Made by a program: the position numbers and the translations under genes | DNA from: an uncultured virus (IMG/VR IMGVR_UViG_3300028888_003544) | Lineage: Duplodnaviria; Heunggongvirae; Uroviricota; Caudoviricetes | DNA: 64,000 nucleotides | Reading direction: 5' to 3' (one strand) | IMG/VR virus record: IMGVR_UViG_3300028888_003544 | Part shown: positions 18,689 through 29,465 of the stretch, piece by piece | Position numbering within the stretch: position 1 is the first letter of the stretch | Layout: each line of letters opens with the position of its first letter | Notes under the pieces: generated by a model | Databases searched by the model: none | The model's input: the letters and a program-made list of their open reading frames with translations, nothing else | What the model was told of the DNA's origin: nothing

Positions 18689-18946
18689 TCAGCCGACGAT
18701 GGCCAGACGGTTGTCGGCAATATCGTACCTGACGGGATGGGCAAAGGTGATAGTCTTACCGTCATAGACAGCTGAAACATCGATACCTCTACGTTTGAAC
18801 TCGTCGATGAGGGCCTGGTCGTGATAGGCACGCATACTAGTCCAGCCAGTATTGCCGACCTGATGATTGAAAACGGTTACTAACTCGGGAATCTGCATGT
18901 CTGCAAACTGCAGGGCATACTTCGTGTAATAAATGTGCTGTTGCAT
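18689..18946 (-). CDS. Hypothetical protein
   Basis: 85 aa with its own TATCTTTG promoter at 19070-19077. Confidence 0.65.
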   Translation of the reverse strand: MQQHIYYTKYALQFADMQIPELVTVFNHQVGNTGWTSMRAYHDQALIDEFKRRGIDVSAVYDGKTITFAHPVRYDIADNRLAIVG

Positions 18947-19201
18947 AACTTTTTGTTTTTGAAGTTTATAAATGTTGCTTCCGCATCGTACTGACCACCG
19001 TGGCTAAGTTATCTTATAAGCTCGGTTGGCGAGTCACCCTTTCGGGTACTGCTCTTGATGCTTCGGGTGCAAAGATACACAAAAGTTCTGGAAAATGCTC
19101 CTATTTGATTAAAAAAGTTAAAACAGAAGCAGATTTTACAACTGGCAGTTGTTTTTCTCAATATTTTTTCGTACCTTTGCACCAGATAAAACAGATATAG
19201 T

Positions 19202-22576: not shown

Positions 22577-22697
22577 AGCTGCGAGCAGGACTCGAACCTG
22601 CGACCCATAGTCTAACAGAAATGAAGTATGTGGTGATTGGTCCTTCTCAGGAAATGTCGTCACAAACCTATTGTTCTACCAACTGAACTATCGCAGC
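22577..22697 (-). ncRNA. tRNA-like RNA with an expanded anticodon arm
   Basis: Acceptor GCTGCGA/TCGCAGC, D arm GTTC-AGTTGGTA-GAAC, T arm GCAGG-TTCGAGT-CCTGC; about 55-nt insert containing CATACTTCA in place of the anticodon loop. Confidence 0.75.
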
Positions 22698-22782: not shown

Positions 22783-22875
22783 TGAGCGGCGGGCTGGAAT
22801 CGAACCAGCAGTAACCATTAGGTGTAAGCAAACGTTTGGGCCATCACTTAGGCAATTGCGAAGCTTACCGCCGCT
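22783..22875 (-). ncRNA. tRNA-like RNA with acceptor and T arm but no canonical D or anticodon arm
   Basis: GCGGCGG/CCGCCGC acceptor, GCTGG-TTCGATT-CCAGC T arm, same T-C-A 3' end as the 22577 element. Confidence 0.65.
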
Positions 22876-22882
22876 ACCGTTT

Positions 22883-24055
22883 TTATCCTTTGATAACAGC
22901 CACCGGCAGGAGTCGGGTCTTAACCTTTACCAGGTCTGCCTCGTTGGCTATTACCTCCTCAATGTCCTTATAGGCTCCAGATGCCTCCTGCATATCTTCC
23001 TGAGAGCGTATGGCATGAACGATGCCCTTTGCTTCAAGTTGAGCCACTTCCTGCTGTAGATTCAGCGTTTTGATGGCCATTGAACGGGATAGGACACGAC
23101 CAGCTCCATGAGAGCATGAGCAGAATGAGTCTGGATTACCAAGACCTTCTACGATATACGATGCCGTACCCTGTGAGCCAGGGATAATACCGATGACTCC
23201 TTCGCGGGCAAGTGTCGCTCCCTTGCGGTGTACGATGACATCGTGACCGAAGTGGTGCTCTACTGCTGCATAGTTGTGAGCAATGTTTATCATCGGTTCA
23301 AACTCTATGCCAGGCAGTGAGTCTGCAAGAATCTCCTCGATACGCTCCATCATGAGCTTCCTGTTGCAGAGAGCGAAGTCTATACAGTACCTCATCTCTC
23401 TCCAGTACATCTCAAACTCCTTGCTACCTCTGGCGAGGAAAGGCAGATGTATGTCAGGCGATACATTTGAATACCATCGCGCATTGAGGGTTGCTGCGAT
23501 CTTGTTGTAGTAATCACCGACCTGCTTCCCGAGGTTGCGTGAACCAGAGTGAATCATGATCCAGAGCGTTCCCTCTTCGTCCTTTTGCAACTCAATGAAG
23601 TGGTTGCCGCCTCCTAACGTTCCGACTTCGTGAAGGATAGAGACCTGACGACGCTTAACTACTTCGAACCTGTCGAGGTCATAGCCTTCAGGCAGGTACT
23701 TCTCATCCTGAGCCTCCTTGTGGTGATCCATTCCCAAAGGGATGCGCTCACGGATTCCCTTCATGATTTGCTTGCGAAGAACCTCTACGGGTATCTCGCT
23801 TACCTTCCAGTTAGTCTTCACGGCACACATTCCGCACCCGATATCTACACCTACTGCGTTGGGAATTACTGCGTCCGTACATGCAAGCACACCACCGATA
23901 GGCATTCCCATACCAGCATGCACGTCGGGCATGATGGCCAGGTGATGGAAGAGGAAGGGCAGCGTGGTCAGGTTTTCAATCTGACGCATAGCAGAGTCTT
24001 CCACATTGTCCGTCCAAATCTTGACAGGGCGGTTGTTGATCATCTTTACTTCCAT
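22883..24055 (-). CDS. rtcB: RtcB RNA ligase
   Basis: PDVHAG, GVDIGCG, GTLGGGNHFIE, HSGSR, HNYA, HRKGAT, SHGAGR. Confidence 0.95.
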   Translation of the reverse strand: MEVKMINNRPVKIWTDNVEDSAMRQIENLTTLPFLFHHLAIMPDVHAGMGMPIGGVLACTDAVIPNAVGVDIGCGMCAVKTNWKVSEIPVEVLRKQIMKGIRERIPLGMDHHKEAQDEKYLPEGYDLDRFEVVKRRQVSILHEVGTLGGGNHFIELQKDEEGTLWIMIHSGSRNLGKQVGDYYNKIAATLNARWYSNVSPDIHLPFLARGSKEFEMYWREMRYCIDFALCNRKLMMERIEEILADSLPGIEFEPMINIAHNYAAVEHHFGHDVIVHRKGATLAREGVIGIIPGSQGTASYIVEGLGNPDSFCSCSHGAGRVLSRSMAIKTLNLQQEVAQLEAKGIVHAIRSQEDMQEASGAYKDIEEVIANEADLVKVKTRLLPVAVIKG

Positions 24056-24152: not shown

Positions 24153-24190
24153 CAAAATTAAATATATACTACGCAATCTTTCTGCGTAGT
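24153..24190 (-). promoter_or_regulatory. rtcB promoter with perfect palindromic operator ACTACGCA-N7-TGCGTAGT
   Basis: Operator at 24168-24190, 7 bp upstream of TAATTTTG (24160-24153). Confidence 0.8.
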
Positions 24191-24236: not shown

Positions 24237-24274
24237 TCTGCGCAAATAGGTTGCGTAGTTTTTTCGTATCTTTG
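24237..24274 (+). promoter_or_regulatory. WYL gene promoter with operator TCTGCGCA-N7-TGCGTAGT
   Basis: Operator 7 bp upstream of TATCTTTG (24267-24274). Confidence 0.75.
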
Positions 24275-24301: not shown

Positions 24302-25327
24302 ATGCCTGCAAACAAGAATGCGTTGATTCGCTACAAAACCATTGATAATTGTCTTCGCAACCGCTATCGCCGGTGGACGCTCGAAGACCTGGTTGATGCC
24401 TGTTCGGATGCCCTCTATGATATGGAGGGAATCAACAAGGGAGTCTCTGTGCGAACCGTCCAGGGTGATATACAGATGATGCGTTCTGACAAACTTGGCT
24501 ATAATGCTCCTATCGAGGTCTATGACCACAAGTATTACCGTTATGCTGACAAAAACTATTCCATCATGGATATGCCGATGTCGCAGAACGACTACGACGT
24601 GATGCAGGAGGCCGTTGACATGCTTCGTCAGTTAGAAGACTTCGACCAGTTCTCTGAAATGTCGGATGTGGTCAGCCGTTTGCAGGATAAGTTAGCCATC
24701 AGCAGGCATAACCGCAAGCCTATCATCCATTTTGACAGTGTGCCGAATCTGGAAGGTATCCGTCTGCTTAACCCACTTTATAACTATATTGCTCATCAGC
24801 AGACGCTGCGCATCATGTACCAGTCATTCAATGCGAGAAAACCAACGGAGTTTATCCTCTGCCCGTATCTGCTGAAGGAGTTCCGAAACCGTTGGTTCCT
24901 GTTCGGTTCAAAGGCCGATGACCTGAAGCTTTTCAATCTACCTCTTGACCGAATCAAGAGTGTTGAGCCTGTGGAAGTCCCTTATCGTGAGAATCCCGAT
25001 TTCGACTCAGAACACTTCTTCGACGATGTAATAGGGGTTAGCAAGAATATCAATAACAAACCGCGATGTATCAGGTTCTGGGCGAATCGGGAGCAAAGCC
25101 ACTATATCAAGACGAAGCCCATTCATCGATCTCAGCAGGTGGTTAGCGAGAATCCGGAGGATGGAAGCTGTATCTTCCAGATAGACGTCGTCATCAACTT
25201 TGAGATGTATTCGGTCTTTATGTCTTATGGCTCTGGCATTAGGATAATCTATCCCAGAAATGCTGTCATGTACATGCGGGATAAATTCAAGGAGGCACTG
25301 GACTTATATGATGCAGCTAACGAATAA
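24302..25327 (+). CDS. wHTH-WYL-WCX transcriptional regulator
   Basis: VSVRTVQGDIQMMR HTH; PYLLKEFRNRWFL, LDRI WYL motifs; divergent from rtcB. Confidence 0.9.
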   Translation: MPANKNALIRYKTIDNCLRNRYRRWTLEDLVDACSDALYDMEGINKGVSVRTVQGDIQMMRSDKLGYNAPIEVYDHKYYRYADKNYSIMDMPMSQNDYDVMQEAVDMLRQLEDFDQFSEMSDVVSRLQDKLAISRHNRKPIIHFDSVPNLEGIRLLNPLYNYIAHQQTLRIMYQSFNARKPTEFILCPYLLKEFRNRWFLFGSKADDLKLFNLPLDRIKSVEPVEVPYRENPDFDSEHFFDDVIGVSKNINNKPRCIRFWANREQSHYIKTKPIHRSQQVVSENPEDGSCIFQIDVVINFEMYSVFMSYGSGIRIIYPRNAVMYMRDKFKEALDLYDAANE

Positions 25328-25383: not shown

Positions 25384-25421
25384 ACTACGCAAAAAGATTT
25401 CGTTCTTTATTTGTACCTTTG
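25384..25421 (+). promoter_or_regulatory. Promoter with operator ACTACGCA-N7-TTCGTTCT
   Basis: 7 bp upstream of TACCTTTG (25414-25421). Confidence 0.65.
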
Positions 25422-25450
25422 CAGCCGAATTTAAAAGAATCCTACAAGGA

Positions 25451-25600
25451 ATGAGACTATTTGTACATACACAGCCGACATTCGTTCAGAGCTATCGACG
25501 CTTTGAACGGAATGCTTATGTGCAGCAATTTTGCACACCAGCAGTCGGTGTAGGATTCCCACGACATCAAGAGCATAGTTATTGCTATCGGGCATCGTAA
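25451..25600 (+). CDS. Putative 49-aa leader peptide
   Basis: MRLFVHTQPTFVQSYRRFERNAYVQQFCTPAVGVGFPRHQEHSYCYRAS* between promoter and terminator (hand translation). Confidence 0.5.
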   Translation: MRLFVHTQPTFVQSYRRFERNAYVQQFCTPAVGVGFPRHQEHSYCYRAS

Positions 25601-25630
25601 GAGAGCCATAGATAGGAGAAAGAGCAACTG

Positions 25631-25677
25631 ATAGTTGGCAATCCGAACCGCAGAGAGGATTTCCAACTATTTTTTTT
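25631..25677 (+). terminator. Attenuator-like intrinsic terminator
   Basis: ATAGTTGG-C-AATCC / GGATT-T-CCAACTAT plus T-run, 25 nt before the ATG at 25703. Confidence 0.75.
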
Positions 25678-25702
25678 CACGCATTAAAATGAACATACAA
25701 CT

Positions 25703-26116
25703 ATGCCTGCGAATAAGAATGCCTTGATAAGGTACAAAACGATAAACAACTGTTTGAGAAACAGATACAGAAGATGGACGCTTGACGACCTCGTAGATGC
25801 CTGCTGCGATGCGCTCTACGACATGGAGGGCATCACCAAGGGTGTTTGCTCCAGGACTGTACAGATGGATATACAGATTATGAGGTCTGACAAACTGGGC
25901 TACAACGCTCCAATAGAGGTGTACGACAGGATATACTACAGATACGCCGATCCTAACTACTCCATTACTGAGATGCCTTTGTCTGTTGATGACTGCAAGC
26001 TAATAAAAGAGGCTATCGCTTTGCTTGGGAAGAAAGAAGATGCAGATAAGGCAAGAACTTTGAAAGTATTAAAGAAGGTTGAGAACAGGCTCGTATCTAT
26101 TCTGAACTTCGCATAA
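25703..26116 (+). CDS. Truncated WYL-regulator paralogue (wHTH only)
   Basis: First ~95 aa nearly identical to the 24302 protein; stops before the WYL domain. Confidence 0.8.
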   Translation: MPANKNALIRYKTINNCLRNRYRRWTLDDLVDACCDALYDMEGITKGVCSRTVQMDIQIMRSDKLGYNAPIEVYDRIYYRYADPNYSITEMPLSVDDCKLIKEAIALLGKKEDADKARTLKVLKKVENRLVSILNFA

Positions 26117-26117
26117 G

Positions 26118-26160
26118 AAAGGTTTCTTTTCAAGTTGTATTCTTGGGAAGAAGCCTTTTT
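26118..26160. terminator. Probable bidirectional terminator
   Basis: AAAGGTTTCTTTTCAAG/CTTGGGAAGAAGCCTTT hairpin between convergent units. Confidence 0.65.
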
Positions 26161-26161
26161 G

Positions 26162-26234
26162 TCTGGATAGCGAGACTCGAACTCACTCCACAAACTCCCA
26201 AAGTTCGGATGCTACCATTAAACACCATATCCAG
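26162..26234 (-). tRNA. tRNA-Pro(TGG)
   Basis: Cloverleaf; CGAAC-TTTGGGA-GTTTG; C1:G72, A73. Confidence 0.85.
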
Positions 26235-26243
26235 TTTATAATG

Positions 26244-26316
26244 TAGTCGGTACGAGGATCGAACTCGTGTGGACAGATTGAAAATCTGTAATCCTGACCT
26301 ATTAGATGAACCGACC
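26244..26316 (-). tRNA. tRNA-Glu(TTC)
   Basis: ACAGA-TTTTCAA-TCTGT; T arm ACGAG-TTCGATC-CTCGT. Confidence 0.85.
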
Positions 26317-26322
26317 TCCTTG

Positions 26323-26396
26323 GGAGTTTGACAGGATTCGAACCTGCGTAAACAAGAGCCACAACCTTGCGCCTGAACCTCTCGGCCACAAACTCC
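26323..26396 (-). tRNA. tRNA-His(GTG)
   Basis: CAAGG-TTGTGGC-TCTTG; G-1:C73. Confidence 0.85.
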
Positions 26397-26402
26397 ATAT
26401 AG

Positions 26403-26473
26403 TTGCCCCAGAAGGATTCGAACCTTCACTAGCAGAGCCAAAACCTGCTGTGCTGCCGTTATACCATAGGGCT
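26403..26473 (-). tRNA. tRNA-Gln(TTG)
   Basis: GCAGG-TTTTGGC-TCTGC; unpaired 1:72. Confidence 0.85.
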
Positions 26474-26481
26474 GTCAATCG

Positions 26482-26563
26482 TTGGGGTGGTAGGACTCGA
26501 ACCTACGAAGCCAAAAGGCGGCAGATTTACAGTCTGCTCTCGTTGCCGCTGGAGAACACCCCA
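26482..26563 (-). tRNA. tRNA-Tyr(GTA)
   Basis: GCAGA-CTGTAAA-TCTGC; long variable arm. Confidence 0.85.
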
Positions 26564-26571
26564 ATATTGAG

Positions 26572-26644
26572 TGGAGCCTCGTGGAGTTGAACCACGTTCT
26601 CAGGATTTTCAGTCCTGCGCATACACCAAGTCTGCCAAAGCTCC
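26572..26644 (-). tRNA. tRNA-Phe(GAA)
   Basis: CAGGA-CTGAAAA-TCCTG. Confidence 0.85.
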
Positions 26645-26652
26645 CTGACTTG

Positions 26653-26724
26653 TTGCCCCAGATGGATTCGAACCACCACCTCCAGATCCAGAATCTGACG
26701 TGCTAACCATTACACCATAGGGCA
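26653..26724 (-). tRNA. tRNA-Gln(CTG)
   Basis: TCAGA-TTCTGGA-TCTGG. Confidence 0.85.
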
Positions 26725-26731
26725 GTAACTG

Positions 26732-26806
26732 TGACTCGTGAGAGACTCGAACTCCCGACCCTGACGTTCGTAGCGTCATGCTCTAATCCAACTGAGCTAA
26801 CGAGCC
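26732..26806 (-). tRNA. tRNA-Arg(ACG)
   Basis: TGACG-CTACGAA-CGTCA. Confidence 0.9.
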
Positions 26807-26834: not shown

Positions 26835-26872
26835 CAAAGGTACAATAGCCAAATGAAGCCTTTTTTCGTAGC
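26835..26872 (-). promoter_or_regulatory. tRNA-array promoter with degenerate operator GCTACGAA-N7-TTCATTTG
   Basis: Site 26872-26850, 7 bp upstream of TACCTTTG (26842-26835). Confidence 0.6.
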
Positions 26873-27050: not shown

Positions 27051-28097
27051 TTAATTGAGAATACCCTTGTTACGCTTGGGCTTGTGACGGATGTCCATGT
27101 CGGCCATGCCAGTTGGCATCGAGCCATTGGCAACACCTTGTTCGCCACCAATCAGGCCCCAGTAGAACACTTCGGCAGCAGCCTTGTCGTCAGCGGCTGT
27201 TACAATGTCGTTGGCCAATTTGTCGCCCATCAGCGACTTCTTGGCGGCCTGATAGACCATTTTTGCATTATCACGCGAACTGATCATACCCTTGCGGTTC
27301 ACGTTCTTGCCAGGCATCATCATGGCAAACAATCCCGTCATAAACACACCGAAGGCCGTCTCTTCTTTCTCACGGCAGAAGCGCAGCGTATCGCCAGTGG
27401 CCAGCTTTTCCACCACATCGACAAAGTTCCTTCGCAACTCTGCCACGTGCTCCTCGCCTTTGGCGCATTCCTCGTCGCTCACATACATCCGCTTCGGCTT
27501 CTTCGTCCAAGGCATTGGCCCGTCGGCCTCACGCAGTCTGGTACGCTCTGCGCTGACATTCAGTACCGTCTCGTGACGATTCATGGCATTCACAAAACGG
27601 AGGTTCTTGCGTTCGTCCTTGCCCAGCCACTTCATCAAGTCCTTGGCCGGGGTATTAAAGAAATATAGTCCGAACAGCGTTGCGTAGGCAGTCTGCAGGA
27701 TGTCCTCTTCCCACTCTTCGTAGGGAACATTATCGGGCCACTCAAAACTTTCGTCAAGCCCCTTCTCCACGGCATTCTTCGCCGGAGTGCGGAAGCGAAT
27801 GAGCTCGAGCAGATTGATATCTGGATCTTTCTTGTAAAGCTCGATGGGGTTCTTGAACTCCTCATTGGAGGGCGTTTCAAGTTCTTCGGCGAAACGGCTC
27901 AGGCACCAAGAGATAAACCTGAAGAGATTGTTTTCACCGTCGGGTTTGGTACATTGTTCAGCCAATATGTGATACTCGCTAATCATGTGTATCAATACGA
28001 ATGTAATTCTTGCTTCGCGGTCGCTAATCTTCGCGGCTGCATTTACCTGGCGCTTCATTTCAGCCAGTACATCTTTATTTTGATAGTCCTTAATCAT
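27051..28097 (-). CDS. Hypothetical protein
   Basis: 348 aa, 3 bp downstream of the ATPase. Confidence 0.75.
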   Translation of the reverse strand: MIKDYQNKDVLAEMKRQVNAAAKISDREARITFVLIHMISEYHILAEQCTKPDGENNLFRFISWCLSRFAEELETPSNEEFKNPIELYKKDPDINLLELIRFRTPAKNAVEKGLDESFEWPDNVPYEEWEEDILQTAYATLFGLYFFNTPAKDLMKWLGKDERKNLRFVNAMNRHETVLNVSAERTRLREADGPMPWTKKPKRMYVSDEECAKGEEHVAELRRNFVDVVEKLATGDTLRFCREKEETAFGVFMTGLFAMMMPGKNVNRKGMISSRDNAKMVYQAAKKSLMGDKLANDIVTAADDKAAAEVFYWGLIGGEQGVANGSMPTGMADMDIRHKPKRNKGILN

Positions 28098-28100
28098 ACT

Positions 28101-29465
28101 TTAAAAAATATATTCTTCTTCGTCAGTCTGAGGTGTGTCAGCTTCCATAAACATCACGTAATAGACGGGCATATACGTCACTTTGCCTTCTTGATATACC
28201 TTGCGCTCGTTGGAAATTACAGTGGCTGCAAGGACATTGTACTCAGGAACTTTCAGAAGATTGTTGAGCGCACTATGCTCCGTGTAGTCCTTGCCCGACT
28301 TGACTTCAATCGGGTGGGCACTCATCGTGGTGTGGTTGTCAATTAGATAGTCCACCTCGCCCTGCTTGCGGTTGTCGTAATAGTAGAGCTTATGCCCATG
28401 TGCGCGAAGTTCCTGGGCCACCACATTCTCATAGACGGAACCGAGATTGATGCTCCGGATATCGTCAAGAACGGGACGGATGTTGTTTCGATAGAGTATG
28501 CCAGTAAGGAGGCCCACGTCGTTCAGATAAAGCTTCAGAAGGTTTTTCTGGAGTGACTCACTCAATGGGAAATGAGGGTTGGAGATGGCATTAACGGCCA
28601 AGGAAATACCTGATGATATCAGGTACTCGAACTCTTCCTTATACTGGTCGAAACGGTCGCCCTTCTTGTCACGGATGTTTTGAACCACCACACGTTTCTT
28701 CTTGTTTTCCATCTGCGAGGGAATCATCTCATAGATTCGGCGTATGAGCAACTTCTTATTGTGCTCTTTCTCGTACTTGGAAGCATCGCTGGCATAAAGG
28801 CTACGGATGCCATCCTGTACCTCACGCACCTTCACAATGTTATGCGTTTCGAGGTAGGTGTTGACGGCATCGGGCAGACCGCCTACCAGCAGATAGCGAC
28901 GGAACAGGTCGAGCACATGGTTATGGTGCTCTTCCGAAAGGCTCTGGCGGTTCTCGTAGGACTTGCGAAGCATGTCAATGGCCTCCGTGCCGAAGCCGTT
29001 GGCAATCAGGAACTCCTCGAAATCGAGCTGGAACATATCCTTGATGGTGATGCTGCCTACTGGAATGGAGGTGGTGTCTTTCAGGGTGATACCCAACAGA
29101 CTGCCACTGGCGATATAGCGGTAGCGGTTATCCTCACGCAGGAACTTCAGCATGGTGAGGTACTGCGGATAGTGCTGGATCTCGTCGAGGAACACCAGTG
29201 TATCATCGCGATTGTTGAGTTTGTCGCCTGCCACCATGCTAAGGGTCAGGTAGAAGTCCTCTTTCTTGTGGATGTTCTTGAAGAGCTGCTCACCCTCATC
29301 ATCCTCCACGAAGTTGATTTCTACGAAGTTCGGGTAGAGACGTGTACCCACCTCACGAATACTGAACGACTTGCCTATCTGGCGGGCTCCCTCCAGTATC
29401 AGAATCTTGTCATTATCGGACTTCAGATAGTCATCAATGTACGATATAATCTTCCTGTACAGCAT
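28101..29465 (-). CDS. AAA_14 ATPase with DUF4143/PD-(D/E)XK C-terminus
   Basis: GARQIGKS, FLDEIQ, ASGS, VGGLP, KLYLNDVGL, EVDY...PIEVKSG. Confidence 0.9.
   Translation of the reverse strand: MLYRKIISYIDDYLKSDNDKILILEGARQIGKSFSIREVGTRLYPNFVEINFVEDDEGEQLFKNIHKKEDFYLTLSMVAGDKLNNRDDTLVFLDEIQHYPQYLTMLKFLREDNRYRYIASGSLLGITLKDTTSIPVGSITIKDMFQLDFEEFLIANGFGTEAIDMLRKSYENRQSLSEEHHNHVLDLFRRYLLVGGLPDAVNTYLETHNIVKVREVQDGIRSLYASDASKYEKEHNKKLLIRRIYEMIPSQMENKKKRVVVQNIRDKKGDRFDQYKEEFEYLISSGISLAVNAISNPHFPLSESLQKNLLKLYLNDVGLLTGILYRNNIRPVLDDIRSINLGSVYENVVAQELRAHGHKLYYYDNRKQGEVDYLIDNHTTMSAHPIEVKSGKDYTEHSALNNLLKVPEYNVLAATVISNERKVYQEGKVTYMPVYYVMFMEADTPQTDEEEYIF

Follow-up and report, generated by a model that had tools for sequence, protein, structure and literature searches.

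A conserved leader upstream of a helix-turn-helix-only WYL paralog in Bacteroidales, a candidate attenuator linked to tRNA arrays

Leader-peptide attenuators are known from the trp, his, leu, thr and ilv operons and, in Bacteroidetes, from the Bacteroid-trp leader. The element described here was found in a stretch of DNA of 64,000 nucleotides (nt) belonging to IMG/VR record IMGVR_UViG_3300028888_003544; this whole stretch is called the window, and all coordinates without a locus prefix are window positions. It is a leader that precedes a helix-turn-helix (HTH)-only paralog of a WYL regulator, in a locus with the RNA ligase gene rtcB and a tRNA array. With the classical attenuators it shares a short 5′ open reading frame (ORF) rich in the codons to be sensed, an apparent set of three overlapping helices (1:2, 2:3 and 3:4), of which the last is a terminator before the gene, and a terminator that is most stable at equilibrium, so that the choice would be kinetic. 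It differs from them in its panel, which covers six or more amino acids and matches a tRNA array and not a biosynthetic pathway, and in its candidate target, a WYL-factor paralog that has no sensor and is encoded in an RtcB locus. Furthermore, region 1 lies upstream of the start codon, whereas it classically lies inside the ORF, and no model of Rfam 15 (E up to 1), including T-box, the known amino-acid leaders and Y RNA, matched within 25385-25702. The attenuator design is a known one; what is new is the panel that would be sensed and the gene that would be controlled.

T-box elements bind one uncharged tRNA directly and are not translated. Like them, the present element appears to report the state of tRNA by a choice between terminator and antiterminator, but its ORF is conserved, many tRNA species would be sensed by way of the ribosome, and there was no match to the Rfam T-box. 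Phage-borne tRNA arrays replace host tRNAs cut by anticodon nucleases. The arrays described below likewise contain extra, divergent copies of particular tRNAs (e.g., Arg-ACG and Tyr in genome G005), but they are chromosomal and belong to a putative RNA-repair regulon with their own regulated promoter, and the leader has no true match in the collection of viral contigs searched.

In Anabaena PCC 7120, the trn operon is a stress-induced array of 26 tRNA genes that is co-regulated with rtcB via promoter repeats (PMC8421152), and the trn/rtcB regulon is repressed by TrcR, described as a transcriptional repressor (PMC10272220). As far as these sources describe it, the common features are an accessory array and rtcB that share promoter repeats and form one regulon, switched on when translation is impaired. 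The regulator here is a WYL/WCX protein and not of the TrcR type, the arrays consist of 3-11 genes, and the locus has a leader ORF and an HTH-only paralog besides; the terms "attenuat" and "leader" are absent from the main text of PMC8421152. An operator shared as in the Anabaena type is also seen here, as both rtcB and the array have matches to one operator-promoter profile, the array copy being degenerate. In Salmonella and E. coli, the rtcBA or rsr-yrlBA-rtcBA operon is controlled by RtcR, and tRNA damage is sensed (PMC7790460; PMC10159003). According to the same sources, this system has in common with ours an RtcB repair operon in which a tRNA-like RNA is encoded (here a tRNA-like gene with a 52 nt insert), but there the CARF domain of a sigma-54 activator binds tRNA fragments, while here the regulator is an HTH-WYL-WCX protein and a putatively translated leader would be a further sensor. 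No description of the module of leader, HTH-only paralog and array surfaced in a full-text literature search; the 2016 survey of RNA repair by Burroughs and Aravind, which was outside that search, may bear on the novelty of the WYL-RtcB association.

Conservation of the leader, its helices and a possible alternative pairing

We consider it somewhat probable, at a little better than even chances, that the region 25385-25677 is a ribosome-mediated transcription attenuator that gauges the decoding of the codons served by the array, within a WYL-controlled RNA-repair regulon. The coordinates of all features are given in Table 1.

The leader sequence and a leader profile were used to search 80 genome loci encoding relatives of the WYL protein of the window. 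The leader was present in seven of them, in one case cut by the contig end. An exact-pattern scan of metagenomes returned 32 stretches, 12 of them with the full leader; the other 20 were chance matches lacking a full-length profile match and were rejected. Altogether, 19 further leader-bearing stretches were obtained (20 with the window), which form six divergent families with 65-72% DNA identity. In a pattern scan of 401 Bacteroidales genomes with one mismatch allowed, a true match was found only in the seed genome and none in the other 400, and all 12 one-mismatch places failed the leader profile. The collection of viral contigs contained no true match, only a single chance one with neither a profile match nor tRNAs. 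The element is thus rare.

All six families keep the ORF open over 49-52 codons, and the positions of its ATG and stop align. Frame 0 contains no stop codons, while each of the other two frames contains 2-5, and the indels within the ORF are all of 3 or 6 nt. Conservation was a point on which the sequence-only reading, made before any comparison, could have failed; it had also given the order of promoter, 49-codon ORF and terminator, and these elements are present where it had placed them. The conserved frame, start and stop, together with the recurrence of the motifs FVQSYRRFE, GIGF and HSYFY, could also be expected if the ORF encoded a functional small protein, basic and aromatic, with the helices and the terminator being ordinary mRNA features or a separate control. 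However, the peptide is weakly constrained: the ratio of non-synonymous to synonymous differences (pN/pS) averages 0.62, and of 48 columns, 22 are variable at the first codon position, 31 at the second and 31 at the third, so that third positions vary no more than second ones. The conserved motifs coincide with helix arms (FVQSYRRFE with P2, GIGF with the 3′ arm of P1), the peptide matches no Pfam family, and the stop is followed at 31 nt by the terminator and, in every locus, immediately by a gene. A small protein is accordingly a very improbable explanation. The weak constraint on the peptide and the position of its motifs on helix arms form the pattern of a regulatory ORF, not of a folded small protein; what the ORF keeps is its openness and composition, not its peptide sequence.

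The minimum-energy fold of the leader has -80.9 kcal/mol (z -5.03, with none of 200 shuffles as stable) and contains the terminator hairpin. The consensus fold consists of P1, P2, a small hairpin P3 and the terminator. Over 11 sequences, 95.2% of cells pair, seven pairs show compensatory changes, and the covariation score was reached in 0 of 500 shuffles. P1 has nine core pairs, one of them covarying (UA 6, CG 4, UG 1), and P2 has 12 pairs, three of which are changed on both sides; the Tyr-Arg-Arg codons UAU CGA CGC lie in and next to the P2 loop. The terminator has nine consensus pairs, with 99% of cells paired and one compensatory change, and its T run, interrupted in L084 and L112, ends 22-26 nt before the ATG of the HTH-only gene. 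A strongly structured leader with two named pairings had been predicted from the letters alone, and these pairings were recovered as the covarying helices P1 and P2.

For the analysis of the alternative pairing, region 1 was masked as by an initiating ribosome and the transcript was folded until the 3′ arm of the terminator emerges. Under these conditions, the antiterminator formed by regions 2 and 3 was present in the minimum-energy fold of 10 of 11 sequences, with 18-25 pairs. Counted over 18 pairs, 85.4% of its cells are paired, compared with 24-50% when the partner is slid. The energies of the competing structures are balanced (P1 from -12 to -15, antiterminator from -15 to -21 and terminator from -16 to -21 kcal/mol). 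The letters ATCC..ACC of the terminator loop are invariant, though useless to the terminator itself, which a place in the antiterminator pairing would explain. A different antiterminator, in which CAACT/AGTTG sequesters the terminator arm, had been proposed in the sequence-only reading; this pairing is present in the window, but the other families have not kept it. A pairing found by eye between the HSYFYQ block (CUAUCA) and the 5′ arm of the terminator (UGAUAG) was also rejected, being broken in L115 and L116.

The stable fold (z -5.0), the leader's own promoter and terminator and the presence of other structured, tRNA-like RNAs at the same locus are features that a stand-alone small RNA of about 250 nt, acting in trans or binding a protein of the repair system, would also have, the open frame then being incidental. 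This is the least probable of the explanations that we considered, since the frame is open in six families with indels in threes and a fixed stop, the amino-acid bias described below is specific to this frame, no Rfam model matches, and the element always lies directly upstream of the same gene.

That gene encodes 135-138 amino acids (aa) after every leader and in every family. In the window, the protein has 81 of its first 100 residues in common with the winged-helix N-terminus of the WYL protein, then 8 of 31, and it ends before the WYL domain; it aligns to only the first ~131 residues of the full WYL protein. The 137 aa protein has no match in Pfam or NCBIfam, and the WYL domain is not present. 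All 17 short paralogs in the loci examined follow a leader, and the 80 full-length genes there have at least 300 aa. With its length conserved behind the leaders, the HTH-only gene is therefore a conserved paralog and not debris, so the term "truncated WYL gene" used earlier, with its suggestion of decay, has to be given up.

The promoter of the leader fits TAnnTTTG, the consensus of the Bacteroidetes promoter box. It is preceded by an operator-like site of the form CTACGCA-N7-TTCGTTC, whose core ACGCAAAAA.A.TTCGT is invariant across seven homologs, and palindromic relatives (CTACGCA-N7-TGCGTAG) lie upstream of rtcB and of the WYL gene. A sigma-70 promoter scan and a simple terminator scan listed nothing at the leader; this silence is expected, because the promoter is of another type, for which the scan was not built, and the terminator loop has 12 nt. 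A profile of operator and promoter matched in the window before rtcB (24202-24130) and before the array (26882-26824), and also matched the array promoters of L008, L049 and L083 as well as many sites beside WYL genes among the 80 loci. Judging by these related modules, rtcB and the full WYL gene appear to form one regulon together with the leader and the array. Their putative operators would be bound by the WYL protein, as their position and palindromy suggest.

Assembled contigs from four RNA-library runs gave a hint only, as contigs are uninformative on RNA ends and levels: in run X12, one contig covering 25434-25775 had a depth of 37.9 beside an upstream contig with a depth of 11, and in the other runs the contigs break elsewhere.

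Leader composition and the content of the tRNA arrays

The neighbouring tRNA array reported in the sequence-only reading is present as described, with eight genes convergent to the HTH-only gene. All 17 leader stretches that extend ~0.9 kb or more downstream have a convergent array, the other three stretches being cut, and the arrays hold 3-11 genes. They appear to consist of extra, divergent copies: genomes G003 and G005 gave 57 and 43 tRNA matches, 8 and 5 of them from the arrays, and in the G005 array 48-50 of 75-77 positions of Arg-ACG and 59 of 83 positions of Tyr are the same as in the housekeeping genes. Between the stop of the HTH-only gene and the last tRNA of the array there are 44 nt (26117-26160) with only weak AT-rich hairpins, and therefore the two transcription units may collide or overlap.

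In the leader peptide of the window, 28 of 49 residues (R6 F5 Q5 Y4 H3 P3 E2) are amino acids served by the array, while K, D, I and W are absent. In 38 long ORFs of the window, the same seven account for 31.5% of residues (nominal binomial p 1.9e-4), in agreement with the third that had been assumed for ordinary proteins when this composition was first pointed out. Among 149 short ORFs of the window (40-70 aa), only one, the leader ORF itself, reaches 28/49, as did 0.04% of 5000 mononucleotide shuffles.

Over the six families, the residues most enriched relative to the window proteome are S, F, H, Y, R and Q, and the amino acids served by the arrays are R in 6/6, H, S and Y in 5/6, F in 4/6 and Q and E in 3/6 families. 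For the 20 amino acids, leader enrichment and array frequency are correlated with a Spearman coefficient of 0.82 (permutation p 2.5e-5); without the window family, in which the pattern was discovered, the coefficient is 0.795 (p 5e-5). In frame 0, a leader's own array serves a share of 0.49-0.76 of the residues; in the other five frames this share is 0.13-0.52. Out of 1000 dinucleotide shuffles for each family, 0 to 2.1% reached the value observed. In a permutation test of six arrays against six leaders, for which one formerly cut array was completed, the true pairing was the best of 720 permutations, for residues as well as for codons served.

Single amino acids gave the same picture where one family lacks the tRNA. 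The window family is the only one without a Ser tRNA and has 3 Ser in the leader, compared with 6-12 elsewhere (12 in L117 and 9 in L114 and L113); the leader of the one family lacking a His tRNA contains a single His, compared with 3-5 in other leaders, and that of the one family lacking a Tyr tRNA contains 3 Tyr, compared with 4-7. The leaders also favour U-ending Tyr and His codons, with TAT:TAC at 26:2 and CAT:CAC at 17:3, against 65% and 60% in long ORFs, although homologous positions are not independent.

These results bear on a more general explanation, in which the leader answers any slowing of ribosomes, be it by antibiotics, rRNA damage or starvation, and the match between codons and arrays is a by-product or a coincidence. 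The Anabaena array co-regulated with rtcB is described as answering translation inhibitors in general (PMC8421152), an E. coli upstream ORF is described as sensing several ribosome-targeting antibiotics (PMC12121999), and arrays vary under unchanged leaders, as detailed below. On the other side, the enrichment is specific both to the reading frame and to the amino acids of the arrays, the correlation holds without the discovery family, and each leader fits its own array best of 720. We therefore regard a generic stress leader as improbable.

A predicted route of attenuation and its direction

In the attenuator that we favour, a promoter guarded by a WYL-type operator would drive a leader of ~250 nt encoding the peptide of 49-52 codons. 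The alternatives would be P1 (region 1 with region 2), the antiterminator (region 2 including the ~10 nt that follow the P1 arm, with region 3) and the terminator (region 3 with region 4). With no ribosome on the leader, P1 should form and the terminator should end transcription. A ribosome arriving at the stop codon would come to lie between regions 2 and 3 with P4 unfolded, and termination would again be expected. A stall within approximately the first 27 codons would leave the P1 domain open, and a following ribosome may occupy region 1; region 2 would then capture region 3 and the polymerase would read into the HTH-only gene. As the codons for Ser, Phe, His, Tyr, Arg and Gln in which the leader is rich correspond to array species, the attenuator would report the decoding of these codons.

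The opposite sign would make the leader a sensor of recovery: smooth decoding would give read-through and a stall termination, and the ligand-blind HTH-only protein, produced only after decoding has recovered, would then shut the regulon, including the array, by way of the shared operators. We consider this unlikely, but it has several points on its side. The leader promoter bears the operator, so the leader is probably transcribed only with the regulon on. The operator lies directly upstream of the promoter box, where a sensor-less DNA-binding domain would most simply repress. Read-through heads into the convergent array over the 44 nt spacer, which would bring interference and not help. Against the recovery sensor, the full antiterminator folds only with region 1 masked, which is easier to obtain by a queue of ribosomes behind a stall; a ribosome at the stop codon should, from the coordinates, hinder the pairing of regions 2 and 3 between which it stands. 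Classical attenuators also run the other way.

Returning to the attenuator in which a stall gives read-through, several results weigh against it or limit it. With regard to the RNA, region 1 lies upstream of the ATG, an uncommon arrangement that leaves the direction of the switch uncertain, and as this region would not be covered by the stalled ribosome itself, the step by a queue or steric effect is a supposition. The array-served run HSYFYQ just before the stop has no obvious role when stalling gives read-through. The antiterminator shows one compensatory pair, no better than shuffles, and rests on conserved complementarity. When a ribosome mask was moved along the leader at equilibrium, the probability of the terminator was 1.00 at every masked position, so that no codons were singled out and any switch must be kinetic; in the trp attenuator the terminator likewise wins at equilibrium. 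The AAGGA before the ATG is no argument for translation, because Bacteroidetes generally lack Shine-Dalgarno initiation.

With regard to the arrays, three of the six Arg codons of the window leader (AGA, CGA x2, CGC, CGG x2) are not read by the anticodon ACG, namely AGA and both CGG, a caveat that the sequence-only reading had itself raised. With only six deep families, the smallest possible permutation p is 1/720. For Pro, Glu, Gln, Lys and Cys, no clear contrast was seen between leaders with and without the respective tRNA, and the leader of L114 has 7 Phe with no Phe tRNA in the array. Arrays also differ under identical or nearly identical leaders (the window compared with L084 and L108, and L116 compared with L083). 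L084 has the same leader peptide as the window, but its array lacks Tyr and has Thr and Arg-TCG in addition; in L108 the array lacks Pro and Glu, and one leader Pro codon is now Ser; in L083 and L086 the arrays consist of His, Tyr and Phe only, under a leader rich in Ser and Arg. Since arrays change under the same leaders, leaders follow them only loosely over short evolutionary distances. The arrays have the faster turnover, and the fit is visible only between deep families. The comparison of leader composition with array content across loci, which had been suggested as a check, thus came out positive between the six families and negative under identical leaders.

Of the original proposal of an attenuator that would read out the loss of host tRNAs replaced by the array, the ORF, the helices and the link to the array have held and are conserved, with a conserved alternative pairing other than CAACT/AGTTG. 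The target gene is not decayed, and the tracking of the array is loose. A more far-reaching version, which we put forward as tentative and think possible but doubtful, is that of a chromosomal alarm for tRNA loss. The leader would be a multi-codon test strip for tRNAs cut by the anticodon nucleases of attackers; stalling would open the attenuator, the sensor-less HTH-only protein would take the shared operators and drive the replacement array and RtcB, and restored decoding would close the attenuator again, leader and array co-evolving with the spectrum of threats.

The surrounding locus and possible significance

The region is read as part of a Bacteroidales genome; the WYL protein of the closest record, L001, is 99% identical to that of the window. 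The features of the locus are collected in Table 1.

Table 1. Positions of the leader elements and of the neighbouring genes in the window
Feature	Position	Strand	Remarks
RING-domain protein, SCO0854 family, 754 aa	20218-22482	-	weak match to a prokaryotic RING finger and below-cutoff match to the MXAN_6230/SCO0854 RING family
tRNA-like gene in rtcB operon	22577-22697	-	intact acceptor, D and T arms; score with the tRNA model 54 bits
Second tRNA-like element, directly after rtcB	22785-22875	-	weak tRNA-Sec score, 24 bits
RtcB RNA ligase gene	22883-24055	-	divergent from WYL gene; palindromic operator 24169-24189
Full-length WYL regulator (HTH, WYL and WCX domains)	24302-25327	+	own operator 24238-24258
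Operator-like site CTACGCAAAAAGATTTCGTTC	25385-25405	+	regex scan; upstream of leader promoter; related to the rtcB and WYL-gene palindromes
Leader promoter box TACCTTTG	25414-25421	+	fits Bacteroidetes TAnnTTTG box; TA..TTTG then CA in all homologs
P1 5′ arm (region 1), GAATCCTACA	25437-25446	+	ends 5 nt before ATG; pairs with TGTAGGATTC 25549-25558
Leader ORF, 49 codons, MRLFVHTQPTFVQSYRRFERNAYVQQFCTPAVGVGFPRHQEHSYCYRAS	25451-25600	+	open frame in six families
P2 hairpin in ORF, codons 10-22	25479-25514	+	CATTCGTTCAGAGC 25479-25492 pairs with GCTTTGAACGGAATG 25500-25514
Region 2 (P1 3′ arm, codons 33-36, and next ~10 nt)	25545-25568	+	antiterminator 5′ strand
P4 hairpin, leader stop codon in loop	25583-25617	+	in 8/8 folded sequences, stem sequences differ; covariation judged by eye
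Region 3 (terminator 5′ arm and loop)	25629-25650	+	antiterminator 3′ strand
Intrinsic terminator, stem GATAGTTGG.AATCC / GGATT.CCAACTAT then T8	25630-25677	+	hairpin 25630-25670; 12 nt loop
HTH-only paralog of WYL regulator, 137 aa	25703-26116	+	without WYL and WCX domains; candidate regulated gene by position
Eight tRNA genes: Pro-TGG, Glu-TTC, His-GTG, Gln-TTG, Tyr-GTA, Phe-GAA, Gln-CTG, Arg-ACG	26161-26806	-	convergent to HTH-only gene
tRNA array promoter	26835-26871	-	degenerate operator CTACGAAAAAAGGCTTCAT, then box TACCTTTG; spacing same as at leader

The rtcB gene adjoins the WYL gene in 49 of the 80 related loci. In L008 (4864-5070) only 69 RtcB residues align, so rtcB is apparently truncated or lost there, while the remaining module is intact. 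The RING-type protein encoded downstream of rtcB in the window occurs in 23 of the 80 loci, including L074 and L079, in which rtcB was not detected next to it. In the window, a Ro60 gene was not seen near rtcB, and the RING-domain protein occupies that place.

In the tRNA-like gene of the rtcB operon, 52 nt replace the anticodon loop, and equivalents were found at G003:C3:8508-8632 and G005:C28:13409-13530. The gene recalls, as we take it, the tRNA-like YrlA RNAs of Salmonella repair operons. In L008 (4654-4727), L007 (2393-2466) and L009 (722-795), ARAGORN placed a tRNA-Phe(GAA) on that side of the WYL gene where rtcB lies; it may correspond to the second tRNA-like element of the window. L008 and L114 form the one family without Phe in the array, and a Phe gene is present on the rtcB side of its locus.

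Farther from the leader, a SAM-I/IV riboswitch aptamer was detected at 18945-19066 on the minus strand (47.4 bits, gathering threshold 41.1). Upstream of the array, 27051-29465 on the minus strand encodes a 348 aa protein without a family match and a 454 aa AAA_14/DUF4143 ATPase. An array of 24 tRNA genes with a related WYL gene and rtcB lies in the Muribaculaceae locus L061 (61-3378, minus strand); the operator-promoter profile matches there within and upstream of the array (1944-1890 and 3477-3426), and neither a leader nor an HTH-only paralog is present.

Among the known sensors by which bacteria notice missing or cut tRNAs, RtcR binds tRNA fragments. If the favoured reading is true, the leader would be a direct functional read-out of the decoding capacity for many tRNAs, with an old attenuator design wired into an RtcB regulon. 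It predicts that the leaders of different families answer different tRNA shortages, so that Ser-rich leaders would respond to a limitation of seryl-tRNA and the leader of the window would not. The conserved module of three parts, i.e., leader, HTH-only paralog and array, could help to find such arrays and to study tRNA conflict in gut and rumen Bacteroidales.

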